Assembly: GCA_964603935.1 (NCBI GenBank)
Contig: CAZRWL010000001.1
Location: 2,306-66,305, forward strand
Length of the DNA stretch: 64,000 nt
Source: an uncultured Gammaproteobacteria bacterium
GTDB taxonomy: Bacteria; Patescibacteriota; Microgenomatia; Levybacterales; UBA12049
Direction of reading: 5' to 3'
Within the stretch, counting starts at the first letter, position 1. Each line of letters begins with the position of its first letter. A program made the position numbers and the translations under genes. Positions 33,921-61,516 of this stretch are shown here, piece by piece. The notes under the pieces are model-generated. The model saw nothing but the letters and a program-made list of their open reading frames with translations. It made no database searches and had not been told where the DNA came from.

Positions 33921-34226
33921 TTAAATTTTAAACATCACCCTCCCAACAATGTCTTTTTTTCTCACCCAGCCAAAATGCCTGCTATCTGTGCTTTCTCTCC
34001 TGTTGTCTCCGGTAACAAAAAAGATGTCTCCGTCAGCTGACGGCTTTATTTTTGCGATTCGTTTTATTATAAACTTTTCTCTCTTCAAAACAACAACATC
34101 TCTAATCCTGGGTTTATTTAAGAGATATGAAAGTCTATTCACCAAAATCCTATCGCCCACTCTAAATGCAGGAGTCATGCTATTACCTTTAATTTGAAAT
34201 TTAAAAAGAGGGAGTAAGCTAAACAC
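33921..34226 (-). CDS. sodX: S26-family signal-peptidase-like protease, putative Ni-SOD maturation peptidase SodX
   Basis: GNSMTPAF (catalytic Ser box), KRIAK (Lys box) and GDNRRESTDSRHFGWV (SPase box E). Immediately downstream of, and co-oriented with, a Ni-SOD precursor gene. Confidence 0.65.
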   Translation of the reverse strand: MFSLLPLFKFQIKGNSMTPAFRVGDRILVNRLSYLLNKPRIRDVVVLKREKFIIKRIAKIKPSADGDIFFVTGDNRRESTDSRHFGWVRKKDIVGRVMFKI

Positions 34227-34663
34227 TATTTCGCTTTAGACTTTACAAATATTCCTGCTATTTCATCTACCGCTTTCACCAATTCCTGGGCGGCTTGTAA
34301 ATTTACTTCCTGTTTATTCTTAGAACAAAGTTTTGCTGCTTGCCAAAATTTTTCGTGCAGATTAGAGAATCGAACTAAATGTTCAGGCTTAAAATAATCA
34401 GTCCATAATATTAAAAGTTCCTCTTTGCATCTTCTCGCATGTTCTTCTTTGGTTAGAACACAACGGACAAATTTACTTCTATCATTAACTGTGGGTTTCT
34501 CCGCAGGCAAGTCTTGAATTAATTGCACCATTTTTAAAACTGTTTGCGCTGCAATTTGGGCTGACTTCGGATCATAAATTCCGCAAGGCACATCACAATG
34601 AGCATAAGCTATCCTTACCGGAAGAAACTTTGAGATTATTATAGATATACTTCTCGGAATCAT
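34226..34663 (-). CDS. sodN: Nickel superoxide dismutase precursor (SodN) with N-terminal propeptide
   Basis: The propeptide MIPRSISIIISKFLPVRIAYA is followed by the Ni-hook HCDVPCGIYDP (His1-Cys2-x-x-Pro-Cys6-Gly-x-Tyr). About 120 aa of helical bundle follow. Confidence 0.8.
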   Translation of the reverse strand: MIPRSISIIISKFLPVRIAYAHCDVPCGIYDPKSAQIAAQTVLKMVQLIQDLPAEKPTVNDRSKFVRCVLTKEEHARRCKEELLILWTDYFKPEHLVRFSNLHEKFWQAAKLCSKNKQEVNLQAAQELVKAVDEIAGIFVKSKAK

Positions 34664-34708
34664 ATGACAATATAATACTAATCTCTTTTGAAAAAACTGT
34701 CAATTCGC

Positions 34709-35857: not shown

Positions 35858-36799
35858 ATGATGCCTAATCATTTTGACGCTATATGTGTCGGGAATGCAA
35901 AAATAGACACTTTCCTTACGCTCCATGAGGCAAATTCCCACCTTCGCTTAATAAAAGATACTAATGAACTTTGTATAAAATTCGGAGAAAAAATAACTGT
36001 TGACAAAGCGGAAATCCTGCTTGGGGGAAATGCAGCGAATGTGGCGGTTGGCATCTCTCGTCTTGGATTAAATGCAGGCATTGTCGCAGAAATAGGTAAA
36101 GACGAATTTGCGCAGAAAATAATAAATACCTTGTCCAAGGAAAAAGTTGATGTCTCAAATGTTACCCAAACAGAAGGAGCGCAATCCTCTTTTTCCACGA
36201 TCATTAATTTTAAAAACGAAAGGACAATTTTCTCAGAACACGTAAAAAGACTGCATAATTTCGACCTTGACAATCTTTCAGCAAAATGGGTTTACTTAAC
36301 CTCTTTGGGAGAGGAATGGCGAAACGCCTACAATAAAGTCTTCCATTTCGTTAAAGAAAAACAGTGTTTACTCGCTTTTAATCCCGGTACACTGCAAATC
36401 AAAAGCGGTAAAAATAGCATAGAAAATCTCTTATCGATTACAAATCTCCTTTTTGTAAACAAGGAAGAAGGAGAAGAATTACTAAATTATCCTAAGGGGC
36501 AAAATACAATTCAAGAAATCATTGTAAATTTACAAAAACTCGGACCAAAGATAGTCGTGGTTACGGATGGAAAAAACGGATCTTACGCGATTGATGAAAA
36601 AGATGAAATTTTTAAGCAAGGGATAACTAAGGAAATAAAGGTTGTGGAAAAAACCGGAGCAGGAGATGCTTATTCATCGGGTTTCCTTTCCTCAATGATA
36701 CGCAATAAATCAATTACGGATGCTATGATCTGGGGCGCGAAAAATTCAGCGTCTGTTATACGTAAAGTCGGCGCTCAAGCCGGACTTCTTTATGATTGA
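35858..36799 (+). CDS. PfkB-family carbohydrate/nucleoside kinase (ribokinase-like)
   Basis: GGNAANVAVG and TGAGDAYSSGF motifs. Confidence 0.75.
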   Translation: MMPNHFDAICVGNAKIDTFLTLHEANSHLRLIKDTNELCIKFGEKITVDKAEILLGGNAANVAVGISRLGLNAGIVAEIGKDEFAQKIINTLSKEKVDVSNVTQTEGAQSSFSTIINFKNERTIFSEHVKRLHNFDLDNLSAKWVYLTSLGEEWRNAYNKVFHFVKEKQCLLAFNPGTLQIKSGKNSIENLLSITNLLFVNKEEGEELLNYPKGQNTIQEIIVNLQKLGPKIVVVTDGKNGSYAIDEKDEIFKQGITKEIKVVEKTGAGDAYSSGFLSSMIRNKSITDAMIWGAKNSASVIRKVGAQAGLLYD

Positions 36800-37652
36800 C
36801 AATCTAGGGTACAAAAAAAATCTTTTCATACTTCCATTCGACCACAGAGCATCATTTGCGAAAATGTTTGGATTTGCAAATTTAACTCTTGAGGAAAAAA
36901 ATTATATTGTTTCTGCCAAAAAACTTATCTATGAAGCTTTCAGAATGTCTCTCTCTCAAGGAATTTCAAAGAAAGAAGCCGCAATCTTGGTTGACGAAGA
37001 ATACGGAGATGAAATTTTAAAAGATGCCGGAAATCAAGGGATTACAACTATTTTAACTGCGGAAAAAAGCGGGCTCGCCTCGCCGCGAAGCGGGCAAGAA
37101 GGATTTAGCTTTGAGTATGGAGATAAATTTGCGCAGCATTTAGAAAAATATAAACCTACTTTTGCAAAAGCATTGATTCGATATAAACCGAATGCAGATT
37201 GGGTTAATTTAAAAGTCCTTTCGGATTATTGCCATACTCACGGATATAAGTTTTTGCTGGAAATGTTAATGGGATTAGACATTCCTAATGCGCAAAATTT
37301 TTTACCCGCAATCGAGGAGCTCAAAGAATTAGGTATTGAGCCTGATGTCTGGAAATTAGAAGGAATGGAAAATAAAAATGACTATGAACTTGTTGTTGCA
37401 AAAATTAGAGAAGGAGAAAGACAAAATGTAGGACTTGTCATCTTGGGACGCGGAGAAAGCAAGGAAAAAGTAGAACAGTGGATAATGGCTGGAAAAGATG
37501 TAAGCGGAGTGATAGGATTTGCAGTGGGCCGGACAATTTTTGCGGATTCCCTGAAAAAATACAAAGATGGTAAAATAGATAAAAATAAAGCAATAGAAAA
37601 AATTAGCGATAATTTTTTACATTTTTACCATATTTTTATAAATAAACAATGA
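36792..37652 (+). CDS. Conserved protein, possibly DUF2090/aldolase-like TIM-barrel partner of PfkB kinases
   Basis: LPFDHRASF N-terminus. Overlaps the PfkB gene by 8 bp. Assignment is from memory of the PfkB plus DUF2090 architecture and is weak. Confidence 0.3.
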   Translation: MIDNLGYKKNLFILPFDHRASFAKMFGFANLTLEEKNYIVSAKKLIYEAFRMSLSQGISKKEAAILVDEEYGDEILKDAGNQGITTILTAEKSGLASPRSGQEGFSFEYGDKFAQHLEKYKPTFAKALIRYKPNADWVNLKVLSDYCHTHGYKFLLEMLMGLDIPNAQNFLPAIEELKELGIEPDVWKLEGMENKNDYELVVAKIREGERQNVGLVILGRGESKEKVEQWIMAGKDVSGVIGFAVGRTIFADSLKKYKDGKIDKNKAIEKISDNFLHFYHIFINKQ

Positions 37653-38104
37653 AGATTTATTTGGGGACAGACCATGCGGGATTTGAGCTGAAGGAACAAA
37701 TTAAAGAATACCTCATTCAAGAACATTATGATGTTGTTGATTGCGGCGCTTACTCATTTGATAAAAATGATGACTATCCGGACTTTATCGGTAAAGTTGG
37801 AGAGAATGTTTCGAAAGATTTAAGCTCTCGCGGCGTTGTACTGGGGAAATCAGGGGCAGGAGAGTGCATTGTGGCTAATAAATATAAAAATGTGCGGGCA
37901 TTTCTTGCAGTCAATGAAAAAAATGTTAGGCTTGCAAGAGAACATAATGATGCAAATGTTATTTCTGTCGGATCAGAAATTGTTTCCCCTACCGAGACCA
38001 AAACGCTTATAAAACTTTTCCTTGAAACTCCATTTCCGGGAGACGAGCGCCATGCAAGAAGAATTAATAAAATTAAAGCGATTGAAGGAAGTCAGACTTC
38101 CTGA
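37649..38104 (+). CDS. rpiB: Ribose-5-phosphate isomerase B (RpiB/LacAB family)
   Basis: MKIYLGTDHAGFELKEQIKEYL..GKSGAGECIVANK. Confidence 0.85.
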   Translation: MKIYLGTDHAGFELKEQIKEYLIQEHYDVVDCGAYSFDKNDDYPDFIGKVGENVSKDLSSRGVVLGKSGAGECIVANKYKNVRAFLAVNEKNVRLAREHNDANVISVGSEIVSPTETKTLIKLFLETPFPGDERHARRINKIKAIEGSQTS

Positions 38105-38109
38105 AAAAA

Positions 38110-39387
38110 ATGTTAATTAAAAATTTTGATGCATTAAATTCCACTCCCCAAAGAAAAATCTGCCTGGAGCTCATAGAAGCAGCGCTTGAGTCAATTCAAC
38201 CCAAAAATGTAATTAAAAAAAATATTTCCTTAAAAGAAAGTGTTCTAAAAATTCAGGATAAAACTTTTAATTTAAAAGACTTTGATCGAGTTTTTCTTAT
38301 TGGTTTTGGAAAAGGATCTGCCGGTATTTCCAAAAGAATTGAAACCATACTTAAGGAAAAACTAACTGAAGGTTACATTATCGATACAACTTCTGAGGAA
38401 TTTGCAAAAATAAAATTTACTCAAGGCGCTCATCCATTGCCCTCCGAGACAAATCTTGACTTTACAAAAAAAATAATTCAACAATTTAACAACCTGACAA
38501 TTAAAGACTTAGCTATCGTTGTAATTGCCGGAGGCGGGTCCGTGCTGTTTGAAAATCCATATAAAATTAATCTTGAAAAATTGACTGAAGTAAATAATGC
38601 CTTACTTAAATCCGGAGCAAATATTATAGAAATGAATATCGTAAGACAACATTTGTCAGATGTTAAAGGAGGAGGTCTTGCTAAAATTCTATATCCGTCA
38701 ACAGTTGTAAGCTTAATTTTTTCTGATGTCCCAGGAAACGATATTTCCTATATTGCGTCCGGCCCGACAGTAAAAAATCATACAACAATTTCAGATGCCC
38801 TCGATATTCTCAAAAAATACAATCTTGAAAAGGAGTTGAATTTGCCGGCCGATTCATTTACGGAAAATCCAAAAGAAGATAAATATTTTGAAAAAGTTAA
38901 TAATTTAATAATCTTAAGCAATCAAACTGCACTGCAGACAATGAAGAAAAAGGGAGAAGAATTGGGATTTGCTGCCAGAATTTACTCGGATAAATTTGAA
39001 TCAGATGCCAAAACCGCAGGTAAAACATTAATTGACGCAGTAAATTCTGATGAAATTTTGCTAGTTGGCGGAGAAACAACTGTAAAAGTTTTGAATAAAG
39101 GAGGACAGGGAGGAAGAAATCAAGAGTTAGTTTTGGCTGCGCTTGCATCAATCGATGAAAGGACAACAATTGTTTCCTTTGATTCTGACGGATGGGATAA
39201 CTCTTCTTTCGCAGGAGCTATTGGAGATTTACTGACAATTCAAAAAGCTAAGGAATTAAACATTGTTCCCGATGTTTTCTCACAGGAAAATAACAGCTTT
39301 CTCTTCTTTGAAAAAACAGGCGACGGAATTATTACAGACCGCCTTCCCTCCAACGTGTCCGACCTCATGATTGTTCTGAAAAAATAA
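38110..39387 (+). CDS. Glycerate kinase (MOFRL/GckA family, glycerate 2-kinase)
   Basis: GFGKGSAG, AGGGSVLFENP, LVGGETTVKV and GGQGGRNQEL motifs of DUF4147 plus MOFRL. Confidence 0.7.
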   Translation: MLIKNFDALNSTPQRKICLELIEAALESIQPKNVIKKNISLKESVLKIQDKTFNLKDFDRVFLIGFGKGSAGISKRIETILKEKLTEGYIIDTTSEEFAKIKFTQGAHPLPSETNLDFTKKIIQQFNNLTIKDLAIVVIAGGGSVLFENPYKINLEKLTEVNNALLKSGANIIEMNIVRQHLSDVKGGGLAKILYPSTVVSLIFSDVPGNDISYIASGPTVKNHTTISDALDILKKYNLEKELNLPADSFTENPKEDKYFEKVNNLIILSNQTALQTMKKKGEELGFAARIYSDKFESDAKTAGKTLIDAVNSDEILLVGGETTVKVLNKGGQGGRNQELVLAALASIDERTTIVSFDSDGWDNSSFAGAIGDLLTIQKAKELNIVPDVFSQENNSFLFFEKTGDGIITDRLPSNVSDLMIVLKK

Positions 39388-39405
39388 TTCTGTTACTATA
39401 GATTA

Positions 39406-40248
39406 ATGATTGCAACTCCGGAAAAAATAAAAGATCTTGATCTTAAAGCAGATAAAATAAGACAGCTTATTATTGAAATGCTTTTGGAGGCAGGCTCGGG
39501 ACATTCGGCAGGACCCTTGGGAATGGCAGATATCTTTACTGCTTTTTATTTTCATATTCTAAACCATGATCCTAAAAACCCAAGTTTGCCTGACCGAGAC
39601 AGATTAGTTTTATCCAACGGACACATTTGTCCCGTTCAATATGCAGCTATGGCTTTAGCAGGATATTTCCCCATTGAGGAATTAAAAACTTTGCGAAAAA
39701 TAAATTCCCGGCTGCAAGGACATCCCCACAGAACCTCCCTTCCGGGAATTGAAACAACTTCCGGACCCCTTGGTGAAGGATTATCTCAAGCGATCGGAAT
39801 TGCCTTAGCCGGAAGACTGGATAATAAAAATTACAAAGTGTACTGCTTAACATCAGATGGCGAACATGAAGAAGGAAATACTTGGGAAGCGGTGATGTTT
39901 GCCGCGAAAAATAAGTTAAATAATTTAATTCAAGTTATAGACCGCAATTATATTCAAATTGATGGCAACACGGAAAATGTTATGCCTCTTGATCTCCTAA
40001 AAGCAAAATACGAATCATTTAATTGGAACGTTATTGAAGTAGACGGAAATGATATTAAGAGTTTTATTGAGGCAGTTGAAAAAGCAAAATTAGCAACAGA
40101 CAAACCCACCATTATAATTGCCAAAACAATTCCGGGAAAAGGAGTAAGCTTTATGGAAAATGATTATCATTGGCATGGCAAACCGCCAAACAAAGAAGAA
40201 GCAAAGAAAGCTCTCGAAGAGCTTCGTAGTTCAAAATTTAAAATTTAA
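39406..40248 (+). CDS. Transketolase, N-terminal (TPP-binding) subunit
   Basis: GSGHSAGPLGMADI, LSNGH and GEHEEGNTWEA motifs. Split tkt. Confidence 0.85.
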   Translation: MIATPEKIKDLDLKADKIRQLIIEMLLEAGSGHSAGPLGMADIFTAFYFHILNHDPKNPSLPDRDRLVLSNGHICPVQYAAMALAGYFPIEELKTLRKINSRLQGHPHRTSLPGIETTSGPLGEGLSQAIGIALAGRLDNKNYKVYCLTSDGEHEEGNTWEAVMFAAKNKLNNLIQVIDRNYIQIDGNTENVMPLDLLKAKYESFNWNVIEVDGNDIKSFIEAVEKAKLATDKPTIIIAKTIPGKGVSFMENDYHWHGKPPNKEEAKKALEELRSSKFKI

Positions 40249-40257
40249 AATTATACT

Positions 40258-41250
40258 ATGTTGAATCCTGATTTGAAACTTAACCAAAAATTATTTGATG
40301 CTGACGCAGAAATTAAACCTACCCGCGCAGGTTATGGAGAAGGACTTTTGGAGCTTGGCGGAAAAAATCCCAATATTGTTGCTCTTTGCGCTGATTTAAC
40401 AGAATCAACCTACGCTCATCTTTTTGCGGAGAAATATCCCGAAAGATTTTTCCAAGTCGGAGTTGCCGAGCAAAATATGGCTGCAATCGCAGCGGGTCTT
40501 GGAGTAAGCGGAAAAATTCCCTTTATTTCTTCGTACGCAACTTTTTCTCCGGGCAAAAACTGGGAAACTATCAGAACAACTATTGCCTATAACAACTCTA
40601 ATGTGAAAATTGCCGGACACCACGCAGGAATAATGACCGGTCCGGATGGCGCAACTCACCAGGCAACCGAGGACATTGCAAGCATCAGATCCTGGCCGAA
40701 TATAAAAATTCTTGCTCCTTGCGACAGTATTGAGGCAAAAAAAGCAACAATTGCAGCCGGAGAAACAAACGGCCCTGTTTATCTCAGATTCTCCAGAGAT
40801 AAAACTCCAATAATCACAACGCAGGATTCGCCTTTTGAAATAGGTAAGATTCAAATTTTTTGGACTAGTGATACTCCAATTGCAACAATTCTTGCAATGG
40901 GCTACATGCTCCATTACGCGCTGGTTGCTGCAAAGGAGTTAGAGCAAGAAGGAGTTAGAGTGCTGGTTGCAAATGCTTCAACTGTCAAACCTTTGGATGA
41001 AGAAGCTGTTTTTTCCCTTGCTAAAAGGACCGGCGCTTTTGTTACAGTTGAGGATCACCAGGTTATGGGCGGACTGGGAGGAACGATCGCAGAATATTTG
41101 GCTAAAAATGTTCCAACACCAATGGAATTTATCGGTCTTCAGGACACCTTTGCGGAATCAGGAAATCCAAAAGAATTAATTGAAAAGTATGGAATGGGAG
41201 TTCAGGCAATAAAACAAGCAGTGAAAAAAGTAATCGCCAGAAAAATATAA
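40258..41250 (+). CDS. Transketolase, C-terminal (pyrimidine-binding + C-terminal domain) subunit
   Basis: GVAEQNMAAIAAGL and PDGATHQATEDIA motifs. Confidence 0.85.
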   Translation: MLNPDLKLNQKLFDADAEIKPTRAGYGEGLLELGGKNPNIVALCADLTESTYAHLFAEKYPERFFQVGVAEQNMAAIAAGLGVSGKIPFISSYATFSPGKNWETIRTTIAYNNSNVKIAGHHAGIMTGPDGATHQATEDIASIRSWPNIKILAPCDSIEAKKATIAAGETNGPVYLRFSRDKTPIITTQDSPFEIGKIQIFWTSDTPIATILAMGYMLHYALVAAKELEQEGVRVLVANASTVKPLDEEAVFSLAKRTGAFVTVEDHQVMGGLGGTIAEYLAKNVPTPMEFIGLQDTFAESGNPKELIEKYGMGVQAIKQAVKKVIARKI

Positions 41251-41333
41251 TTTTCAATTTGAAATTTAAAATTTGAAATGAAAATTTAATTTTAAAAATT
41301 CAATGAAAATTAAAAATTGAAAATTTAAAATTA
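41251..41333. repeat. Degenerate A/T heptamer repeat tract (GAAATTT/GAAAATT-like units) in intergenic region
   Basis: ttttcaatttgaaatttaaaatttgaaatgaaaatttaattttaaaaattcaatgaaaattaaaaattgaaaatttaaaatt. Confidence 0.6.
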
Positions 41334-42986
41334 ATGGAAAATAATCTTATTGATCAAATCAAAACCATAATCAAAGGGGATGTCTTAGGAGATGAAAAAA
41401 CTCTTCAGGAATATTCCCATGATGCCAGTCTTTTTGAAGTAAAACCCCAAGCAGTCGTCTTCCCAAAAGACGTGGAGGATATAAAAAAACTGGTTAAATT
41501 TGTATCGGAAAATAAGAAAAGCAATCCCTCGCTTTCTCTAACCGGAAGATCTGCGGGAACAGATATGGGAGGAGGGTCTATCAATGATTCTATCATTGTG
41601 GAATTTAATAAATATTTTAATCATACCCCGCAAATAAACGGTACTGTTGCCACAACAGAACCCGGTGTTTTTTATCGGGATTTTGAAAAAGAAACATTAA
41701 AACACAACCTTATTTTTCCTTCTTATCCTGCGTCCAGAGAAATCTGCGCAATGGGCGGAATTTTGAATAATAATTCCGGCGGAGAAAAATCACTGCAATA
41801 TGGAAAAACAGAAAAATACATTGAGGCAATGAAAGTTGTATTAAGTGATGGAAATATTTACGAGTTCAAAAAACTCTCAGAACAGGAGCTCCAAGAAAAA
41901 ATATCGCTCAAAACATTTGAAGGCAAAATTTACAGAAAGATATATAAACTCATTATTGATAACCAAGATAAGATTAGCAAAGCCAAACCTAATGTTTCTA
42001 AAAATTCCGCAGGATACTATCTATGGAATGTTTACGACAGGGAGAAGAAAACTTTTGACCTAACGCAGTTATTTGTCGGAGCACAAGGGACATTAGGACT
42101 TCTGACGGAAGCAAAGGTTAAGCTTGTCCCCGTACCCATACACCGGGAGATGGAAATTATTTTCCTGCGCGATCTTGCACATTTAGGAGAGATTATTGAT
42201 GCAGCCTTATCTTTGCAGCCGGAAAGTTTTGAGTCATATGACGATAACACGCTAAAACTGTCTCTGAGATATTTCCCTGAATTCGCTCACCAGCTGGGCA
42301 TTGCCGGACTTATCCAGGCAGGCATAGCGTTTCTGCCGGCATTTTTACAAATGCTTATCGGCAGACTTCCAAAATTGGTTCTGCAAATTGATTTTGCCGG
42401 AAATGATCTTAGCGAACTTAAGAAAAAAATAGATACTCTGCATGCAAAGCTTAAACCCTTTCACCCTCAAACACGTATCGCAATTGACGATCAGGAAAAA
42501 AAATATTGGCTGGTCAGACGGGAAAGTTTTAATTTGCTGCGCAAAAAAATCAGAAACAAACACACCGCGCCTTTTATTGATGATTTCGTAATCAACCCGC
42601 ATCAAATTGCAGAAGTCATTCCAAAAGTAACTTCAATTTTGAAAAAATATCCGGAATTTATTTTCACTGTGGCAGGTCATGTCGGCAATGGAAATTTCCA
42701 TATTATTCCATTGGCTGATATTACAAACAAAAAAGTACGTCAGGCCATCCCAATTATTGCCGACAAGACTTACGATATTATTGCCGAATATAAAGGTTCT
42801 ATAACCGGAGAGCATAATGATGGACTTATCCGTACCCCCTATTTGAAACAAATGTATGGCGAAAAAATAATAAAAATTTTCGAAGAGGTTAAAAATATTT
42901 TCGATCCCCAAAACATCTTTAATCCCAGAAAAAAAGTTTTTGGAGATTTGGATTTCGCCCTAAACCACATCAGAGAAAATTGGTAA
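41334..42986 (+). CDS. FAD-linked oxidase (GlcD/D-lactate dehydrogenase family)
   Basis: FAD-binding PCMH-type N-terminus (LTGRSAGTDMGGGS) and a C-terminal FAD-oxidase domain. Confidence 0.6.
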   Translation: MENNLIDQIKTIIKGDVLGDEKTLQEYSHDASLFEVKPQAVVFPKDVEDIKKLVKFVSENKKSNPSLSLTGRSAGTDMGGGSINDSIIVEFNKYFNHTPQINGTVATTEPGVFYRDFEKETLKHNLIFPSYPASREICAMGGILNNNSGGEKSLQYGKTEKYIEAMKVVLSDGNIYEFKKLSEQELQEKISLKTFEGKIYRKIYKLIIDNQDKISKAKPNVSKNSAGYYLWNVYDREKKTFDLTQLFVGAQGTLGLLTEAKVKLVPVPIHREMEIIFLRDLAHLGEIIDAALSLQPESFESYDDNTLKLSLRYFPEFAHQLGIAGLIQAGIAFLPAFLQMLIGRLPKLVLQIDFAGNDLSELKKKIDTLHAKLKPFHPQTRIAIDDQEKKYWLVRRESFNLLRKKIRNKHTAPFIDDFVINPHQIAEVIPKVTSILKKYPEFIFTVAGHVGNGNFHIIPLADITNKKVRQAIPIIADKTYDIIAEYKGSITGEHNDGLIRTPYLKQMYGEKIIKIFEEVKNIFDPQNIFNPRKKVFGDLDFALNHIRENW

Positions 42987-43607
42987 CTAAACTTCCTTAG
43001 TTTTTCTTCTTTTCGCGTAAAGTATGTAGGGAATAATGCTTAATAAATTGGTGATTGCCACCAGATAAAATAAAAATGCAAATCCATATCTGTTCGCTAC
43101 AAATCCTCCGATTGTTGCAGACATGGCCATTCCCATAAATACGAATCCGTCATAGATGCTCCATTCCGCTACTTCTTTGTCTTTATCAAGATGCGTTGAA
43201 AAAAGAGAATTTTTTGCAGGCGAAGCAATTCCCAATCCCATACCAATAACACCATAAAAAACAAATACCGAGGAAACATTTTTTGTCAGGGCAAAACCCA
43301 GATACCCAAGACTGACAAGAAAAATCCCGATAATTGATACTGCAAATTTCTGTATATCTTTTGACTTGGCTAAATACCTTCCGCTAACCAACTCGAAAAT
43401 AACTCTTACGATAAGGTAGGCGCTGAAAGATGATGCGGCAATTTCGGTATTTCCTCCGGATATTTCAGTGGCGGCAAAAATAGCAAAAATCGGAGTGATT
43501 GCATTCCATGAAGACCAGAGAAATATCTCGGAAATAATAAATGCCTTCACGATGGAATTCATGTGGAAATCCGAAGGCTTTCTTCCGATAAAAATTTCTT
43601 TTATCAT
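42987..43607 (-). CDS. Six-TM membrane protein, MFS-half-like
   Basis: 206 aa with 6 TM helices and a basic C-terminus. Confidence 0.3.
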   Translation of the reverse strand: MIKEIFIGRKPSDFHMNSIVKAFIISEIFLWSSWNAITPIFAIFAATEISGGNTEIAASSFSAYLIVRVIFELVSGRYLAKSKDIQKFAVSIIGIFLVSLGYLGFALTKNVSSVFVFYGVIGMGLGIASPAKNSLFSTHLDKDKEVAEWSIYDGFVFMGMAMSATIGGFVANRYGFAFLFYLVAITNLLSIIPYILYAKRRKTKEV

Positions 43608-44484: not shown

Positions 44485-45156
44485 ATGATTCCCAGTATTT
44501 TGGTGGTTGATGACGATGAAGGAATTCGCGAATATTTAAAAGATATTCTCACAGAAAACGGCTATTCCGTAAGAGTTGTCGCAGACGGAATAAGCGCTCT
44601 GAAGACGATAAAAAAATCCCAGCCTGATTTGATAATCCTTGATCTTAATCTTCCCGACATGAGCGGAGAAGGAGTTTGTCTTGAAGTAAGGAAAGACTAC
44701 CCATCTTTGCCTATCATCATGCTCACAGCCAAGGACGATATCAAGGACAAGGTCGAGGGGCTGAAAATGGGAGCGGATGATTATATCACCAAACCTTTTA
44801 TCGCAGACGAATTTATCGCGCGGGTTAAAGCAAGATTAAGAAACAATACTCAAGGAAAGTCTAATTTAAAAGTTGCGGATTTAGAGCTTGATAATAAAAA
44901 ATTCCAGGTAACCCGCGCAGGCAAGATTATTAATTTTACCCCGCAAGAATTCCGGCTGCTGGAATACCTTATGCTGAATAAAGGCGTTGTTCTGACAAGG
45001 GAAATGATTTTGAACAGAATTTGGCTTTATTCTCCCGACATAGAAAGCAGAGTTGTTGACGTATATATCGGATACTTAAGGAAGAAGATAGATAGCGGTC
45101 ATAACCAAAAGCTCGTCCATTCCGTCAGGGGATTTGGATATACTATAAAAGACTAG
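44485..45156 (+). CDS. OmpR-family two-component response regulator
   Basis: Receiver domain (VVDDDEGI .. DLIILDLNLPDMSG .. MLTAKDD..K) plus a winged-helix trans_reg_C domain. Confidence 0.85.
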   Translation: MIPSILVVDDDEGIREYLKDILTENGYSVRVVADGISALKTIKKSQPDLIILDLNLPDMSGEGVCLEVRKDYPSLPIIMLTAKDDIKDKVEGLKMGADDYITKPFIADEFIARVKARLRNNTQGKSNLKVADLELDNKKFQVTRAGKIINFTPQEFRLLEYLMLNKGVVLTREMILNRIWLYSPDIESRVVDVYIGYLRKKIDSGHNQKLVHSVRGFGYTIKD

Positions 45157-45481: not shown

Positions 45482-48400
45482 TTAGAAATTCAGCTTATGC
45501 AGTTTCCTGTAGAATAGCTCTCTGTTCAAGACTAGGACTGATGTGATCATCAAGACAATCAGGATAAGCATAATGTTCTTAGCAGGAAAACCTTTAGCTG
45601 TTTGAGTCTTGCCTTGAGGTGTTTCTTTTTCCTGAGTTGCCCCTAGAACTTCTTTTTCATTCTGACCTATTTGATCTAATTGAGTAATTAAGTTATCATC
45701 TGCTAAATCAGAAATAGTATTGCTGTTTCCCTCCCCATTTGCCGTAACTGTGGAAGTTGTATTTGAAGAAGCAGACGACAGAGTGGGAGTGGGAGTTGGA
45801 GCAGCAGTTACAACAACAGGAGCAACGGTTTGAGTAGTAGCTATATAATAGGAAGCTTTGGTTGCCTGAAACGTGCATGTCCCATCCGCAACAACACATT
45901 TGTGAGGCGGGAGAATGCCGTCATTTGTCCAGTTGTCCGTACCTGTTCTTGAGCGCAAAACACTGAGCGTTTGACCGTTAAGAGCGGTTCCTACAAAAAT
46001 ATTTAATGTGATGGGATTGCTGAACGAAAGTCCATGATTTGGAATACCCCATTGCAGCTTGCCGTTAACCACTATCCCCTCGCCTACTCCTGTTATAGAG
46101 TCGCTTGTAGGTTCAATCGCTGTGAGAGCGGCAATATCCAGATTGCTTCCGTCGATCTTGGTAATTTCTGTTCCGTCAGGCACTGTTACGAAACTTGTTC
46201 CTCCGTTAACAGTAACGTTAACAACAGATGTTCCTAAGGAAATTACTTTGGAAGTGATTGTCTCTCCGTTTAGGGGAGCAAATTTACCCTGTCCGTCAAT
46301 ACTTTTGAAAACCGCATTGCCAAAGCTTAATCCTTCGATTTGGTCTCCTCCGGAAATGGTAACAGCGTGCTTCCCATTTCCTCCTCTTGGCGTGGATAAT
46401 TCCCAGTTGCTTTGCAGAATTTCCCTGACATTGTATGATCCGGGAATTAAATCGGAGAATTGATAGTTACCAAATGCATCGGTTACGGTTGAGAATTCCC
46501 CTGTATCCAATATACTATTGTCGTTGGCATCCAGGAAAATCGTCCAGCCGGAAAGCGCTAATTCATTTACATCTTTGACCCGATTTATATTTGCATCCTG
46601 AAAGACTATTCCGCTAATTGCGCCTTTCTTGTCTTCATCAGGCACAACTACGTCCAAAGGAGCAGTTACCGTAATAGCTGCAGCTATGGGACTTATTCTT
46701 TTGGCAGGACCAAAACTATACGCCCGCAGGAAAACCTGATGCGAGGGGTGCGAGGTATAAGTTTGATTTTGGTCAACAAAAGGAGATGTTTGATTTATGT
46801 GTTCGCGGATATCATCCGAAGTTCCCATAATCCCGTCAGGTCCGGGTAAATTGGTTGCGCGGGTTAAGACCATGAAGTTGGAATGGCTTAACGGATTGAA
46901 AAGAGGATCATCCGGCATAAGAGGTACGAACACTGTGCCGCTTTTTCCCTTGTTAACCAGGTCAAGACCATGATCAAAAAACTGGCCGAATAGAATAAAC
47001 CATGAATTGAATGATGCGGACAAACCCATATCCGGAGCAACATTTGGAATAAATAGAGTGCCTGCAAAAGGATCGGGCAAGGTAAGTTCTCCTGCGGCGG
47101 CAACAGCTGCGGGATTGCTTGGGGTTTGATCAACAATCAAATTGCTGATCAAACGCGGTTTGGAATCAAACACAAAACCATTGGTTTGAGCGTAAGATGT
47201 TAAGTCCCCTACCTTTAACGGTCCCGGCCCATCCAGGTCAATACTAACTATTTCTCCCTCTCTAAATATCGGAGTTGTCAAACGGGGGAATATCCGGTCT
47301 GCTGCGCCAAAACTTGATTGGCCGGGCACAATATTATTCCATGATCCGTCAATCGTACGAAGACCCCAAGGCAAAGTATCTTTGGGGATTAGATTCAATA
47401 ACGGTGTGCCCGCCGCATGAGCTTCCGCAATCCTGATTTGGTCTAAAATGAATTGCAGGTCAGATCTTATCAGGGTCAGTCCTGATCCGCCAAGGAAACT
47501 GCTGCCTGCAGATATTGCCAAAATACCCTTAAGCTTCGGAGATTCTACTTTGTTAAGACCATGCTCCAGATCTATTGTCTGATCGGCAAACTGTAATTTT
47601 TCAATGTTGCGGATTGTGTCTATGCCATTGTTTTCTTTGCCCCCATTGTCAGCTCTATTATCGGTTACTGTTATTCTGCCCTGAGCATCAGGCAAGCTAA
47701 TAGTATAGTCGGCAAAATTACCTGAAAATACGGCTGTGTCAATATCATTTTCGGCAGTACCCGATACCAATATTTCACGGATTATTCTGATTTGACCCGG
47801 ATTTATTTTGCCTTCAAAGATCGCTTCCTGAAGCTCTGTCATGCTGTCAGCAGTCAGAATTTCAATGCCGGGATCATTGCTGTCTCTTACGCTAAGACGC
47901 GCATTAAGCCATGCGTCCCCGTCTATAAGATCGTTTCCGCCGCGTCCCTCAATAATATCGTTTCCGCCCCCGCCCAGAATAATATTACCGCCGGAAAAAG
48001 AGGTAATATCGTCTCCAAGCAAACTTTGCAAACCGTCAATCAGCGCAATTTGACCTGCATTATTTAATGAATTGTTTTGGCCGGAGTTACCGTCAATTTT
48101 TGAGAGTTCAATGCTGCCAAGATTGTCTCCCCGCAGAATGTCGTTGAATTGTCCGCCTGATAAACCTTCGACCGAATCGAAGCGGTCGCGAAGAGTATCT
48201 ACTTCCGGCAACATTAAGCCTTTGAAAAACATATCCGCGTTAGCCGGCTGAGGATCATTTTTATAAGTAACCCAGTCAAAACCCTGCATGCCTTCATTGC
48301 GTTCAATACCCGGATCGGAAAGCATAATGTCATCTCCTGATTCGGAGTCGTAATCGTCGTCTCCTCCGCCACCTATAATAACATCATTGCCGATAGTTGA

Positions 48401-51400
48401 GCTGTTTTGAAACGGATTGCCGTTATCGCCCTGAAGCAGATCGGCCTGCGCTCCGCCTTCAATCCAATCATCGCCTTCATTGCCAAACACCGTATCGGCA
48501 GCATCCCCTGCCAAAATAAAATCATTCCCCTCTCCGCCAAAAATCTCTTTGGGATCTCTTCCTCCGACAACAAAGTCATGGCCTGATCCTCCCAGGATAA
48601 GATCAATACCCGAACCCGCATTAATCACATCATTGCCCTCTCCGCCCTTGATATTGTCGTCGCCAAAGATGTCGGTCAAAATATCATCCCCTGTTCCTCC
48701 GATTATAAAATCATTGCCCTCTCCGCCTTCCAGACGGTCGTTTCCGCCATCTCCCCACAGTGTATCGTCTCCTTCGCTTGAGCGCATTTTGTCATTACCT
48801 TCGGTTCCTCCCATAACAATGTGCTCAATACCTGTATAGCGGATAGTGCCGTCAGGCATGATAATTGTGTCTGAGGGAAGCGTTGACGGATCCAGGGGAT
48901 CTATGTCAGCCGCTTCAATATTAAAAGCCGGATGGGAGAAAATGTCATGCGGCGGATGCTTTATTCCGGAAGTATTACGCATCGCAAGTTCCGCAAACGA
49001 GTTTTGCTCAAGCTGAGTAAGAAAATTTAATCCTGCGTTGCGGGACAAATAGTAAAGCCTGTCGCCGTCCTGCAGTTTTTCCATCTGCGTTTCAAAAACA
49101 AAGTTAAAAGTAGAACCCAGAAGTCCGCCGAACGGCATTTGTTTTTCCGCAAGACCGCCTATCCAAAAATCAACATCATTAACACCGGTAATAATCCCCT
49201 TATCCGTGCTTGCCCATGCGCCCGTACTATTTAAGAAATCAAGACGATCCTCCGGCGCTCCCTCACCGCCAAGCACCAATAGTGTTGCTGCTGCGCGTTT
49301 GTCCGCAAGAGTTACGGCGTCCGTAATGGCCGTGTGCGTGCCATACGCGGCAATAAAATTAATTAAAGACTCCGGATGTCTAATGCCAAGTTTAAATTCT
49401 ACCCAGCTGCCATAGGGTTTTAAAGCAGGGTCGCCTGCAGTTGCCAAAAAGAATTGAGCGCGGGCCGAATTAAGAGACGGAATACCCGTATCACGGCCCC
49501 TTGCTAAATTTATCGTGGCAAGGTCCAAGGGTAATCCCAATAGATTATTGCGCAGTGACTCTGTTACAAATTCGTCAATTTCGCTGCCAACCTGTCCAAT
49601 CATACCAGCTGCAATAGCTCCGGCCGCCGCATCCGGAGTTGTTCCGCTTTCTAAAAATTCCAGAGGATTTAAGAAAGCCTGAATCAAACCGATATCATTA
49701 CTTGTGCCATCCGGATTAGTGCGGGCGATTGTATCGGTCAGCATGGTGTGGCCAAAGCGGTAAACCGTATGAGCGAACTCGGCTGCAATTGCAGGATCAA
49801 TATCCGTATGATAACCGCTGAATACATTAACCTGCGGCTGAATTTTGCGCGCGAATTCCTCGAATACCAAATGCTGATATTGCATTTCCGTGCCGAATTT
49901 AGCTGCTTGAAACAAACGCTCGCCATTCCAGGAAAGACCGTTAATTGCCTCTTGAGTTATTGGGAAAACTGCAGGCACGGTACCGGGCATAAGCCATTGA
50001 GTTAAGAATTCCAGATCGCCCGTATCCAAAATTACATTCTTAGTATATTCAACCAGACGATTATGTTCGGAATGAAAAATATGATGAACAGAGGTAAGGC
50101 CGATATTTTCATTAACCCTGCCGTCTCCTGCTATAAAATGAGCGTCTAAAAGTTCGTTATCATAGGTACCAGGTTCGGATAATCCGATAACGCTATCCGA
50201 ATCGGGTTTAAGCGGTACGCCTCTGGTATTTACAGGATTGGCGTCATGAGCAATATCAGCCAGGAAAGGATGTCCGCTTCGTATTGCGCCTGTAGCATCA
50301 ACCGGAGATAAGGGATTCCCTTCTACTAAAATTGGGGAATCTGCGGGGCTTAATCCGGGCATCACCAACTGAGGAAAACCGCTTACGCCTTTTAAGAAAT
50401 TTCCGTATGCGTCAACAGCCAAAAGGGGCAGGTCAAGAACATCAAGATCATCGAGTAAAATACCCAGCATGTTTTTCGCCTGAGCTTTAACCTCTGCCCA
50501 GGTAGCCATTCCTCCTCCAAGATTGCGGCTTTCAATCAGCCGTCCCGTCGCAACCGGAGCATTTACTCCATCGGATACTAAAATGTCAAATGTAAATGCG
50601 CCTGCTATTGTAGGTGTCCAGGAAAAAACTCCGCTTACGGGATCTATAGTTGCGCCTTCCGGAGCGTCATTTCCCAGTGAAAATGTCAAAATGTCGCTAT
50701 CAGCATCCGTGGCGGCAACAGTGAAGGAAACAGGCGTGCCAAGCGTGATAGACAGATTTGGAATTGGCGCGATTACAGGAGGAGTGTTTGCCGGAGAAGG
50801 CAAGGGGGCGGGTTCAGGGATTGGCAAAGGCGTTGGTAAAGGTTCGGGCGCGGGTATTGCATTAACTGTTACAGCAGTTGATCCTGTTACTTCTGCGCTA
50901 ACGGCGGTAATTATCGTTACACCTTCGGAAAGAGCAGTAAATGAACCTGTTGAGGAGTTTATTAATCCCACCGCAATATTAGAACTTGTCCACGTAACTG
51001 CTGCTGCAATCGGATTGCCGAATTGATCAAGAGCAGCTGCGCTAAACGCCTGAACTGCTCCAACATTAATCGCAGGAGCTGCAGGACTAACGTTAATTAC
51101 AGCTAAAACAGGTTGAACTGTAACTGTTGTTGATCCGCTAACTGCTCCGCTAGTGGCGGTAATTGTAGTTATGCCGCCTTTAAGAGGAGTGAATACTCCG
51201 GTTGCGGAATCAATTGTTCCAACCAGAGGATCAGAGCTTGTCCACGATACTGCTGCTGCAATCGGATTGCCGAATTGATCAAGAGTAGCTGCGCTAAATG
51301 CCTGAACTGCTCCCACATTGATTATTGGCAAAACAGGAACTACATTAATTGTGTTTAAGACTGGGGCTTCCGCTGCCACATTGATTGTTCTTATTACCTG

Positions 51401-52933
51401 TGTTGCGGTATTTCCCGCGGCATCAGATACATTGTAAGTAATAGTGAATGTTCCGACTGCCGATGTATTAATAGGCAAGCCTGTGGTTATAATACTAGCT
51501 GTAATATCTCCGTCAACATTGTCTATGGCTGTTGCGCCGGCATCAACATAAACAGTGTTTCGTATGACTTCTACCGGGCTTGTTCCATTAAGTGTAATAA
51601 CCGGAGCAATTGTATCAGCGGGAGGAACAGGCGCCGGAGGCAAGGGAGCAACTATCACATTGACTGTTCTGATAACCGGGATCGCTGCATTTCCTGCCGA
51701 ATCTATAGCAGTATATGTAACTGTGTATTCTCCTATAACTGCCGTATTAACAGTACTGACGGAATTAACTTCAACAGCCGTATCAACATTGTCTGCAGCA
51801 GTTGCGCCCGCGTCAATATAAACAGTGTTTTGTACTATTTCTACAGGATTTTCTCCGTTGAGCGTAATAACCGGAGCAGTTACGTCAGCAGGAGGGGGAG
51901 GAGGTTCAGGAGGCAAAGGGACAGCAATTACATTAACAGTCCTTATAACAGGAGCAGCGCTGTTGCCCGCAGTATCAGCTGCTGTATAGACAACAGTGTA
52001 GGCGCCGATTACGCTTGTATTTACAGAATTTACTACATTAACCGTAACTTCCGGATCAACGTTATCAGCAGCGGTTGCGCCGGCATCAGTATAAGTTTCC
52101 CCAACAAACACGCTGACAGGATTGTCGCCAAGCATAGTAATAATAGGAGCAACGGTGTCGGTGGGCGCGGGCGGTGTAGATGGCGTATCATCAACAGGCG
52201 GAGTCGGTGTGGGAGGAGTAGGTTCAGATGCTGAAACAAAAAGAGAAGATTCTATTCTGGTCTGCGCAGCTGAAGTTTGTCCGTCTTCAAATATTAATAA
52301 TGTTTTCCCGGCATTACAATCCGCGATACAATGATCAAATATTTGCACTACAAGATAAGCATTGTTGAATTCAAATTGGCTCTGCGAGGCAGCAAAACTA
52401 AGCTGTTCATCATTATTGTTCCACCAGTCCGGTCCTTCAATGTCAAATAGGAAAACAGCATCTGTCAAACTCGTATTGCTTGGGCTTGAGTAAACGTTAA
52501 TATGGGGCTTTGAAAATTCTCCTCCTGTATTGTCATCTTTATGGATTACGAATTTCCAGCTGCCTGCTTGAAAACTGCCATTAAGAGGCGTCTCGCTTAT
52601 CCACGAAGCGGAATCAACCGGCGGAGCGTGAGACGGCTCTGTTGATGGAAAAATGTGCTGGTGATTAACTTTTCCAGGATGAAAATGCCGAAAAGAAGGA
52701 GTGTTAGTGCTGTTGATGGATGAGACTTGAGAATTACCCAACGTTGGAGCGGTAGTACTCAAAACATGACTATTGGTAAGCGCAGCTGTTTGATTATGGA
52801 AATAAAATATTTTGCTTTCGCCGCCCGATGGCGCAGGGGGTACAGCTTGAGCAAAAGCCAAAAAACTATTTGAAAAAGTTATAGTTAAGGCTAAGAAAAC
52901 TGATAAAATTTTTGATAAAATAGTTTTATTCAC
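45482..52933 (-). CDS. Giant (2483 aa) surface protein
   Basis: Domain order: signal peptide, 3x DUF5011-type Ig-like repeats, 2x Big_2, a cadherin-like repeat, peroxidase C-terminal half, RTX block, peroxidase N-terminal half, SdrD-B/CnaB-like repeat, a conserved C-terminal module, a Pro/Thr linker and a C-terminal TM anchor. Peroxidase C-half spans about aa 880-1310 (FIAGDGRVNEN..HHIFHSEHNRLV, RGRDTGIPS, DGDRLYY). RTX Ca-binding nonapeptide block spans about aa 1375-1680 (GGEGNDFIIGGTGDD...). Peroxidase N-half spans about aa 1855-2075 (RTIDGSWNN, PRLISN, FGQFFDHGLD, VDQNQTY). Confidence 0.8.
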   Translation of the reverse strand: MNKTILSKILSVFLALTITFSNSFLAFAQAVPPAPSGGESKIFYFHNQTAALTNSHVLSTTAPTLGNSQVSSINSTNTPSFRHFHPGKVNHQHIFPSTEPSHAPPVDSASWISETPLNGSFQAGSWKFVIHKDDNTGGEFSKPHINVYSSPSNTSLTDAVFLFDIEGPDWWNNNDEQLSFAASQSQFEFNNAYLVVQIFDHCIADCNAGKTLLIFEDGQTSAAQTRIESSLFVSASEPTPPTPTPPVDDTPSTPPAPTDTVAPIITMLGDNPVSVFVGETYTDAGATAADNVDPEVTVNVVNSVNTSVIGAYTVVYTAADTAGNSAAPVIRTVNVIAVPLPPEPPPPPADVTAPVITLNGENPVEIVQNTVYIDAGATAADNVDTAVEVNSVSTVNTAVIGEYTVTYTAIDSAGNAAIPVIRTVNVIVAPLPPAPVPPADTIAPVITLNGTSPVEVIRNTVYVDAGATAIDNVDGDITASIITTGLPINTSAVGTFTITYNVSDAAGNTATQVIRTINVAAEAPVLNTINVVPVLPIINVGAVQAFSAATLDQFGNPIAAAVSWTSSDPLVGTIDSATGVFTPLKGGITTITATSGAVSGSTTVTVQPVLAVINVSPAAPAINVGAVQAFSAAALDQFGNPIAAAVTWTSSNIAVGLINSSTGSFTALSEGVTIITAVSAEVTGSTAVTVNAIPAPEPLPTPLPIPEPAPLPSPANTPPVIAPIPNLSITLGTPVSFTVAATDADSDILTFSLGNDAPEGATIDPVSGVFSWTPTIAGAFTFDILVSDGVNAPVATGRLIESRNLGGGMATWAEVKAQAKNMLGILLDDLDVLDLPLLAVDAYGNFLKGVSGFPQLVMPGLSPADSPILVEGNPLSPVDATGAIRSGHPFLADIAHDANPVNTRGVPLKPDSDSVIGLSEPGTYDNELLDAHFIAGDGRVNENIGLTSVHHIFHSEHNRLVEYTKNVILDTGDLEFLTQWLMPGTVPAVFPITQEAINGLSWNGERLFQAAKFGTEMQYQHLVFEEFARKIQPQVNVFSGYHTDIDPAIAAEFAHTVYRFGHTMLTDTIARTNPDGTSNDIGLIQAFLNPLEFLESGTTPDAAAGAIAAGMIGQVGSEIDEFVTESLRNNLLGLPLDLATINLARGRDTGIPSLNSARAQFFLATAGDPALKPYGSWVEFKLGIRHPESLINFIAAYGTHTAITDAVTLADKRAAATLLVLGGEGAPEDRLDFLNSTGAWASTDKGIITGVNDVDFWIGGLAEKQMPFGGLLGSTFNFVFETQMEKLQDGDRLYYLSRNAGLNFLTQLEQNSFAELAMRNTSGIKHPPHDIFSHPAFNIEAADIDPLDPSTLPSDTIIMPDGTIRYTGIEHIVMGGTEGNDKMRSSEGDDTLWGDGGNDRLEGGEGNDFIIGGTGDDILTDIFGDDNIKGGEGNDVINAGSGIDLILGGSGHDFVVGGRDPKEIFGGEGNDFILAGDAADTVFGNEGDDWIEGGAQADLLQGDNGNPFQNSSTIGNDVIIGGGGDDDYDSESGDDIMLSDPGIERNEGMQGFDWVTYKNDPQPANADMFFKGLMLPEVDTLRDRFDSVEGLSGGQFNDILRGDNLGSIELSKIDGNSGQNNSLNNAGQIALIDGLQSLLGDDITSFSGGNIILGGGGNDIIEGRGGNDLIDGDAWLNARLSVRDSNDPGIEILTADSMTELQEAIFEGKINPGQIRIIREILVSGTAENDIDTAVFSGNFADYTISLPDAQGRITVTDNRADNGGKENNGIDTIRNIEKLQFADQTIDLEHGLNKVESPKLKGILAISAGSSFLGGSGLTLIRSDLQFILDQIRIAEAHAAGTPLLNLIPKDTLPWGLRTIDGSWNNIVPGQSSFGAADRIFPRLTTPIFREGEIVSIDLDGPGPLKVGDLTSYAQTNGFVFDSKPRLISNLIVDQTPSNPAAVAAAGELTLPDPFAGTLFIPNVAPDMGLSASFNSWFILFGQFFDHGLDLVNKGKSGTVFVPLMPDDPLFNPLSHSNFMVLTRATNLPGPDGIMGTSDDIREHINQTSPFVDQNQTYTSHPSHQVFLRAYSFGPAKRISPIAAAITVTAPLDVVVPDEDKKGAISGIVFQDANINRVKDVNELALSGWTIFLDANDNSILDTGEFSTVTDAFGNYQFSDLIPGSYNVREILQSNWELSTPRGGNGKHAVTISGGDQIEGLSFGNAVFKSIDGQGKFAPLNGETITSKVISLGTSVVNVTVNGGTSFVTVPDGTEITKIDGSNLDIAALTAIEPTSDSITGVGEGIVVNGKLQWGIPNHGLSFSNPITLNIFVGTALNGQTLSVLRSRTGTDNWTNDGILPPHKCVVADGTCTFQATKASYYIATTQTVAPVVVTAAPTPTPTLSSASSNTTSTVTANGEGNSNTISDLADDNLITQLDQIGQNEKEVLGATQEKETPQGKTQTAKGFPAKNIMLILIVLMITSVLVLNRELFYRKLHKLNF

Positions 52934-61243: not shown

Positions 61244-61516
61244 TTAAGCAACTATTTTACTTATATCTATGCCAAGATTTTTTAGATATTTTTTATCTAC
61301 GCTGTAAAAATGGCTTGCCCCCTCTTTTCTGGCTTTTAATATATTTGCGTTAGAAAGTTTTCCGAAATGATGGGAAAGAGTCGGCTGGGAAAGAGGAAAT
61401 TTACTCAAAAGCTTTTTGCAGGAAAGTTCCTTTCCGTTATTTAAGATGTATTTAACAATATTTATTCTGGTTGTATCGGAAAGGGCTTTGAACAATTTAA
61501 CGACTTGTTTTTTCAT
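61244..61516 (-). CDS. ArsR/SmtB-family transcriptional regulator
   Basis: 90 aa. LSDTTRINIVKYIL..LSQPTLSHHFGKL winged HTH. Confidence 0.7.
   Translation of the reverse strand: MKKQVVKLFKALSDTTRINIVKYILNNGKELSCKKLLSKFPLSQPTLSHHFGKLSNANILKARKEGASHFYSVDKKYLKNLGIDISKIVA

Follow-up and report, generated by a model that had tools for sequence, protein, structure and literature searches.

A predicted sodN-sodX nickel superoxide dismutase module in a Levybacteria-like (CPR/Microgenomates) genome

Introduction

The closest known counterparts of the system reported here are the nickel superoxide dismutases (NiSOD) of Streptomyces coelicolor and S. seoulensis (1T6U and 1Q0D), four-helix bundles that carry the metal-binding hook HCDxPCGxYDP at the mature N-terminus, are made with a propeptide whose last residue, next to His1, is small, and are paired with a gene for a small anchorless S26 Ser/Lys peptidase (SodX). 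The same hook, the same type of bundle, a propeptide with the same kind of ending and a gene for a peptidase of this kind were found in the stretch of DNA analyzed here, 64 kb of contig CAZRWL010000001.1 (GenBank assembly GCA_964603935.1; hereafter the window), where sodN, encoding a NiSOD precursor of 145 amino acids (aa), and a sodX-type peptidase gene occupy the minus strand.

NiSOD sequences of Patescibacteria form at least three clusters nested in a clade dominated by Chloroflexota (Sutherland et al., 2021, bioRxiv 10.1101/2021.01.12.426412), and superoxide dismutase genes were found to be the main difference between oxic and anoxic groundwater Patescibacteria (Chaudhari et al., PMC8672522). 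The occurrence of sodN-sodX in Patescibacteria is already documented, and close homologs already bear the corresponding names at NCBI; the additions made here are minor, namely details of annotation and cassette structure, truncated sodX models and a covarying cysteine pair.

Results

Identity, maturation site and fold of SodN

We are highly confident that the locus is a canonical sodN-sodX module, a self-contained cassette of two genes, in a Levybacteria-like genome of the Candidate Phyla Radiation (CPR; Microgenomates). This assignment, which bears out the first-pass annotation of a NiSOD precursor with an adjacent SodX-type maturation peptidase, is directly supported by family scores, ligand register, fold, catalytic dyad, conservation of the cleavage motif, adjacency statistics and the presence/absence pattern among related genomes, with the caveat that the peptidase scores below the cutoff of the SodX model (see Discussion). 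Both open reading frames (ORFs) lie on the minus strand exactly where they had been placed at first pass (Table 1), and the profile searches, the hook register and the cleavage-site alignment proposed then as checks all gave positive results, as detailed below.

SodN matched the Pfam family Sod_Ni (PF09055; curated cutoff 25 bits) with 151.6 bits (E 2e-44) and the NCBIfam equivalog TIGR02753 (cutoff 90 bits) with 154.6 bits (E 2e-45). The precursor begins with MIPRSISIIISKFLPVRIAYA, followed after the predicted cleavage point by HCDVPCGIYDP, so that the previously annotated 21-aa propeptide and Ni-hook are both recognizable. Aligned with the Streptomyces enzyme 1q0d (HCDLPCGVYDP; E 4e-17), His22 corresponds to mature residue 1, and H22, C23, C27 and Y30 stand in register with H1, C2, C6 and Y9. 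The hook residues H, C, D, P, C and Y are the same in Streptomyces and show no exception in 81/81 aligned sequences of the clade. A scan over species-representative genomes of CPR, Chloroflexota, archaea and other groups yielded 80 species-level loci with sodN, and in all but one of these (79/80) the hook reads HCDxPCG(I/V)Y. Directly before the hook histidine (position -1) stands Ala throughout (80/80 loci), Ala or Val occupies position -3 in 73 of 79 loci, and both the leader length and the (A/V)-Y-A motif immediately ahead of the histidine are kept in 29 close homologs.

An AlphaFold model of SodN, built on 29 homologs, is a helical bundle with a predicted local distance difference test score (pLDDT) of 85 and a predicted template modeling score of 0.74. 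Low pLDDT marks the hook region, as is to be expected of this metal-free model, since the hook becomes ordered on nickel binding. When the model was searched with Foldseek against the PDB, the 16 best matches were all NiSOD structures, with target-normalized template modeling (TM) scores of 0.88-0.94 and root-mean-square deviations (rmsd) of 1.6-2.6 Å; for 1T6U/3G50 the TM score was 0.92 and the rmsd 2.1 Å.

More than 5,800 SodN homologs were present in the protein collection, the nearest named ones being 'superoxide dismutase, Ni' proteins of Candidatus Levybacteria, in line with the CPR-like genome suspected at first pass. An identical sodN is present in the sequencing run SRR12113430. Identity amounts to 70-83% with proteins of Levybacteria, Roizmanbacteria and other Microgenomates, and to 47-58% with those of Dehalococcoidia and Limnocylindria. 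Among the 80 loci, those of Levybacteria are nearest (at 78%), followed by Roizman-, Curtiss- and Daviesbacteria and other Patescibacteria; next come Chloroflexota (Dehalococcoidia, Limnocylindria and others) and a small number of archaea, Acidobacteria and Leptolyngbya, a taxonomic spread that matches the published distribution (Sutherland et al., bioRxiv 10.1101/2021.01.12.426412). Eight of the loci come from metagenome-assembled genomes (MAGs) titled 'uncultured Gammaproteobacteria' and are 57-80% identical to Levybacteria-like SodN; at least one of them (L009) also has a CPR-type neighbor, an aKMT-like methyltransferase gene, and the taxonomic labels of these MAGs look unreliable.

The adjoining SodX-type peptidase

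The second gene of the pair encodes an S26 serine peptidase of only 101 aa, recognized already at first pass by its SMTP serine box and box E. Its motifs are GNSMTP (Ser16), IIKRIA (Lys55) and GDNRRESTDSRHFG, it matched Peptidase_S26 (PF10502; cutoff 22.9 bits) with 66.8 bits (E 3e-18), and signal peptidase I structures (4nv4) show aligned counterparts of the Ser box, the KR box and box E. No more than 15 residues precede the catalytic serine, and the peptidase is therefore devoid of a membrane anchor, as read straight off the sequence. In the 59 aligned peptidases, Ser16, Met17, Pro19, Lys55 and Gly73 are unchanged (59/59), and the DSR of box E is almost invariant. A homolog with 64% identity carries the NCBI name 'nickel-type superoxide dismutase maturation protease'. 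Scored by single-sequence phmmer with the window's peptidase as query, an S26 gene adjoins sodN in 58 of the 80 independent loci, among them loci of CPR, Chloroflexota and archaea. Nearly every CPR locus has it directly downstream of sodN, in the same orientation. When all ORFs lying up to 5 kb from sodN in these 80 loci were clustered without preselection, SodN and the S26 peptidase were the only proteins to recur broadly. Two further large clusters were dropped as Arg-rich shadow ORFs of high-GC genomes.

The start of sodX requires correction in deposited annotations. The NCBI/Logan model of the window's gene (P0122) has 85 aa and starts at Met17, so that the catalytic Ser16 is lost; the models of several relatives have 81 aa and likewise begin at the Met of SMxP, omitting the serine. 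The exact 101-aa peptidase was not found in databases, which hold only the 85-aa model. Upstream of the serine box the only canonical start is a GTG that shares its G with the end of the sodN stop codon TAG (TAGTG, an overlap of one nucleotide, nt). The upstream frame is open and conserved at the protein level in the related loci L002 and L005 (IPLFKFKIEGNSM versus LPLFKFQIKGNSM), where the GTG of sodX again overlaps the stop of sodN (GTGA), and for these reasons the longer model is the correct one. The overlap points to a probable translational coupling of sodN and sodX. Automated gene models often place the start at the SMxP methionine and so drop the catalytic serine, and annotation pipelines could thus miss or misjudge the protease.

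Table 1. Coordinates within the window of the sodN-sodX cassette, its functional positions and its immediate neighbors.
Feature	Coordinates	Strand	Basis or remark
sodN, nickel superoxide dismutase precursor, 145 aa	34226..34663	-	Sod_Ni/TIGR02753, PDB matches, fold
Predicted propeptide, 21 codons (M1-A21), ending I-A-Y-A before His22	34601..34663	-	Alignment to mature enzyme
Ni-hook H22-C23-D24-V25-P26-C27-G28-I29-Y30	34574..34600	-	Mature numbering His1, Cys2, Cys6, Tyr9
SodN Cys68 codon	34460..34462	-	Missing in Streptomyces NiSOD
SodN Cys79 codon	34427..34429	-	Missing in Streptomyces NiSOD
SodN Cys113 codon	34325..34327	-	Missing in Streptomyces NiSOD
sodX-type S26 serine peptidase, 101 aa, no membrane anchor	33921..34226	-	PF10502, TIGR02227, context
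Catalytic Ser16 codon (GNSMTP box)	34179..34181	-	Invariant in 59/59 sodN-adjacent peptidases
General-base Lys55 codon (IIKRIA box)	34062..34064	-	Invariant in 59/59; aligns with KR box of 4nv4
Promoter-like TTGACA-17-TAGTAT	34675..34703	-	10/12 consensus match, in 45-nt spacer upstream of sodN, ends 11 nt before ATG
NDH-2-like flavoprotein, 359 aa	34709..35788	-	Pyr_redox_2, 156 bits; neighbor, not part of unit
aKMT-like protein-lysine methyltransferase, N-terminal transmembrane helix, 175 aa	33392..33919	-	Starts 1 nt after sodX stop; neighbor, not part of unit

Limits of the cassette

The NDH-2-like flavoprotein and the membrane methyltransferase that the first-pass annotation had listed in the same minus-strand run are real genes of that run, but their membership in the unit was not supported. 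The best PDB matches of the flavoprotein were bacterial NDH-2 enzymes (4nwz, E 5e-31, residues 4-347; YjlD; S. aureus NDH-2); it reached no NCBIfam equivalog cutoff and has 359 aa compared with roughly 400 aa in the references. The methyltransferase matched the aKMT structures 5fa8 and 5jwj (E about 1e-24, residues 31-156) and scored 96.4 bits against NF041081 (cutoff 200 bits). It possesses an extra hydrophobic helix at its N-terminus, shows strong conservation of a WPPDSPWAPWWRT motif, and belongs to a family of 2458 homologs, mostly unnamed or called 'RNA methylase'; its architecture resembles that of the membrane-anchored FAM173/ATPSCKMT enzymes of eukaryotes.

The four co-directional genes (NDH-2-like, sodN, sodX and membrane methyltransferase) might be read as a single oxidative-stress operon, with the flavoprotein, the methyltransferase or both acting together with or upon the NiSOD. 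All four lie on the minus strand and are tightly packed (45-nt gap, 1-nt overlap and 1-nt gap, respectively), the arrangement is seen again in close Levybacteria relatives, the methyltransferase follows sodX in 7 of the 80 loci, and a different Pyr_redox_2 enzyme, TrxB-like, is encoded directly upstream of sodN in other CPR loci. However, NDH-2 adjoins sodN in a single locus out of 80, and in L089 the sodN-sodX pair occupies the gap between the PfkB and methyltransferase genes without any NDH-2. A comparison of the slot, based on sampled contexts of methyltransferase homologs, revealed the backbone PfkB, methyltransferase, PMT_2/GT87, FemAB and UvrD without sodN, sodX and NDH-2 in three relatives (L088, on a 658-kb contig; L090; and a contig of JGI 3300075153), in which PfkB and the methyltransferase are separated by only 63-85 nt. 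The methyltransferase thus stands at the same slot in genomes that lack the pair, and its large family also counts against a role tied to the NiSOD. In the window, L002 and L005, where NDH-2, sodN and sodX are all present, the whole 20-kb region is syntenic, and the recurrence of the arrangement is therefore not independent evidence. The four-gene operon appears largely refuted by this presence/absence pattern and we consider it very unlikely; on the adjacency counts (1/80 and 7/80) and the occurrence of the methyltransferase at the empty slot, a functional tie of the two neighbors to sodN-sodX was rejected.

Within the sibling genomes, sodN and sodX are either both present (L089) or both missing (L088, L090 and JGI 3300075153) at the same slot. 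Since the neighbors vary or persist independently of the pair, the functional and evolutionary unit is sodN-sodX, and to judge from these sequences the NDH-2-like and methyltransferase genes either belong to the backbone or were inserted separately. There was no compositional sign of recent transfer, the GC content of sodN-sodX (0.34-0.37) falling within the local range of 0.28-0.42.

Other genes were seen near sodN in particular lineages. Beside sodN, on the opposite strand and mostly upstream, eight Chloroflexota loci encode a flavocytochrome of the NOX/FRE type (Ferric_reduct, FAD_binding_8 and NAD_binding_1), and in eight Daviesbacteria-like CPR loci the TrxB-like reductase gene stands directly upstream on the same strand; neither gene is present in the window. 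Divergently from the NDH-2/sodN run, the window contains a sugar-phosphate cluster (35858..42986, plus strand) encoding a PfkB kinase, a DUF2090/DeoC-like aldolase, RpiB, a MOFRL glycerate kinase-like protein, a split transketolase and an FAD-linked oxidase, which is syntenic in all Levybacteria relatives examined.

Promoter-like site and clade-specific cysteines

The spacer upstream of sodN contains a promoter-like sequence (Table 1), found by a search for consensus hexamers that was compared with shuffled sequence. TTGAC(A/T) and TAnnAT recur at the same distance upstream of sodN in L005 and L008, and variant -35/-10 hexamers occur in L089 and L009, which have another gene upstream. Such an arrangement suggests a sodN-sodX cassette with its own promoter and a near-leaderless mRNA, predicted to begin about 5 nt ahead of the ATG.

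SodN has three cysteines (Cys68, Cys79 and Cys113) that are missing in Streptomyces NiSOD. Of 82 sequences of the clade, 35 have Cys at both positions 79 and 113, 17 at one of the two, and 30 at neither. By mutual information with average product correction, the pair takes rank 41 among 3,081 column pairs, and it falls on the antiparallel register i + j = 192 together with the top long-range covarying pairs 83/109 and 84/110, which are contacts of helix 2 with helix 3. C79 and C113 are thus probably in contact, and could form either a disulfide or a mere packing pair.

Other features of the window

Two giant ORFs on the minus strand encode large repeat-containing proteins. The first (45482..52933, 2483 aa) is a surface protein in which an animal haem peroxidase domain (199 bits) is accompanied by bacterial Ig-like, Big_2, RTX and SdrD_B repeats; it is the surface peroxidase locus noticed at first pass, 10.8 kb from sodN, a proximity of no demonstrated meaning. 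The second (52954..59304, 2116 aa) has seven Bact_surface_Ig-like repeats with HYR, fn3 and lamin-tail domains. On either side of the two lie genes for a response regulator (44485..45156) and for a GAF histidine kinase (59375..60586). Near the end of the window lies a complete group I intron (63616..63806, minus strand; RF00028, 88.6 bits, model positions 1-253 of 253), beside which a GIY-YIG ORF of 92 aa (63197..63475, minus strand) may encode a homing endonuclease. As for a host of this intron, ARAGORN detected no tRNA and Rfam no rRNA anywhere in the window.

Discussion

Several points weigh against the assignment of a functional sodN-sodX module. With 54.2 bits, the peptidase falls short of the cutoff of the SodX equivalog TIGR02754 (63.25 bits), although the match spans profile positions 2-89 of 90; no nickel importer or nickel-responsive regulator was found in the window or in the 10 kb upstream on a sibling contig, which leaves the nickel supply unaccounted for; the promoter scan was overall not enriched over shuffled sequence (11 found, 10.9 expected); and for no CPR NiSOD are cleavage, metal content or activity known from experiment.

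The score of the peptidase bears on its name as well as on its function. Because the TIGR02754 cutoff was missed, the gene is designated 'SodX-type by architecture and context' and is not a model-certified equivalog; presumably that model rests mainly on classical, Streptomyces-like members. The generic signal peptidase I model TIGR02227 (cutoff 47 bits) was matched with 74.7 bits, that is, better than TIGR02754, and the SodN leader is basic at its N-terminus and partly hydrophobic in its core, and carries the cleavage motif A-x-A. It could hence be argued that the peptidase is a general signal peptidase I, either a mere neighbor of sodN or the enzyme removing an export signal from a secreted SodN. 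Set against this are the small size of the protein, the short stretch before its serine and the missing anchor, its coupling to sodN, the joint gain or loss of the two genes and their adjacency in most loci across phyla. As for export, the hydrophobic stretch of the leader is broken by Lys12 and Arg17, and characterized NiSODs are cytoplasmic. Either version of this reading is scarcely credible.

With respect to nickel, a Ni-dependent superoxide dismutase in a CPR genome would logically imply nickel acquisition, as had been pointed out at first pass, and such acquisition is putative here. Pfam annotation of essentially all window genes revealed no NiCoT, HupE/UreJ, CbiM/NikM or Nik-type ABC system. 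The sibling MAG contig JACQKM010000008.1 (GCA_016204565.1), tied to the window by an identical MetRS, encodes HrcA, GrpE, DnaK, DnaJ, ClpB and NusA in the 10 kb upstream and no transporter, according to precomputed Pfam labels, and the ORF clustering within 5 kb of sodN in the 80 loci returned no recurrent metal transporter. The sole metal- or transport-related candidates of the window are an ArsR-family helix-turn-helix protein (61244..61516, minus strand) and a half-length MFS protein of 206 aa (42987..43607, minus strand); the ArsR family often senses metals, and neither candidate is a recognized nickel system. That the gene pair is a decaying, non-functional relic, or that its product binds a metal other than nickel, might be argued from this lack of a transporter in the sequence available and from the reduced nature of CPR genomes, but has a next to negligible probability, given that both ORFs are intact, that hook ligands and peptidase dyad are invariant across 59-81 homologs, and that SodN is 70-83% identical across many lineages, which argues for purifying selection.

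Under the preferred assignment, a canonical sodN-sodX module, SodN would be made as a 145-aa precursor, and a small cytoplasmic S26 Ser/Lys peptidase, encoded directly downstream and presumably coupled in translation through TAGTG, would cut after Ala21 in A-Y-A, following the rule of small residues at -3 and -1, and so free the α-amine of His22. Cleavage of the leader by this peptidase is supported indirectly by the (A/V)-x-A motif, which corresponds to the S26 preference. The His22 amine, the Cys23 amide and the thiolates of Cys23 and Cys27 would then make up the Ni-hook binding Ni(II/III), which, held on the four-helix-bundle scaffold, is expected by analogy with the characterized enzymes to dismute superoxide. 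The cassette itself is present or absent at a fixed slot between the PfkB kinase and aKMT-like methyltransferase genes of related Levybacteria.

A bolder proposal can be formulated, which we regard as rather improbable as a whole: that the Levybacteria sodN-sodX is a promoter-bearing, near-leaderless cassette repeatedly gained or lost at one slot, that the C79/C113 pair of CPR and Chloroflexota possibly forms a redox-sensitive disulfide or an additional metal site that no characterized NiSOD has, and that nickel loading perhaps proceeds without a recognizable dedicated importer.

The Levybacteria-like organism is very probably able to detoxify superoxide with a nickel enzyme, as far as can be predicted from its genes. 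The presence of sodN-sodX here agrees with the literature, according to which many CPR bacteria of groundwater are oxygen-tolerant and gene transfer carried NiSOD between Chloroflexota, Patescibacteria and DPANN-type archaea. What is transferred or lost is sodN-sodX alone, and redox or methyltransferase genes next to it are not to be taken for its partners. The current understanding of NiSOD is unchanged by this locus.

Comparison with known systems

Compared with Streptomyces NiSOD, with which it shares hook, bundle and gene pairing, the window's SodN is only about 30% identical in the mature region and has a longer loop between helices 1 and 2. Its leader comprises 21 aa, that of the Streptomyces enzyme 14 aa. 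The clade of the window has C68, C79 and C113 where Streptomyces has Ala, Ala and Leu, respectively; the peptidase lies under the SodX equivalog cutoff; and no Nur-type regulation is evident.

Type I signal peptidases (LepB/SipS, MEROPS S26A) have in common with the window's peptidase the Ser/Lys dyad and the boxes B, D and E (SMxP, KR and GDNxxxSxDSR), and both favor small residues at -1 and -3. The window's peptidase differs from them in having no transmembrane anchor and about half the size (101 aa, versus 176 aa in 4nv4 and about 250 aa in the crystallized anchor-less domain of the E. coli enzyme), and, since it is coupled to and co-inherited with sodN, we infer that it is dedicated to one cytoplasmic substrate.

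The closest affinity of the window's SodN is to the NiSOD clade of Patescibacteria and Chloroflexota, in which it belongs and with which it shares the gene pair and the cleavage motif. From the NCBI-annotated Levybacteria relatives it differs in nothing substantive; what the window adds is an NDH-2-like gene inserted upstream, missing in most relatives, and a deposited sodX model that is truncated.

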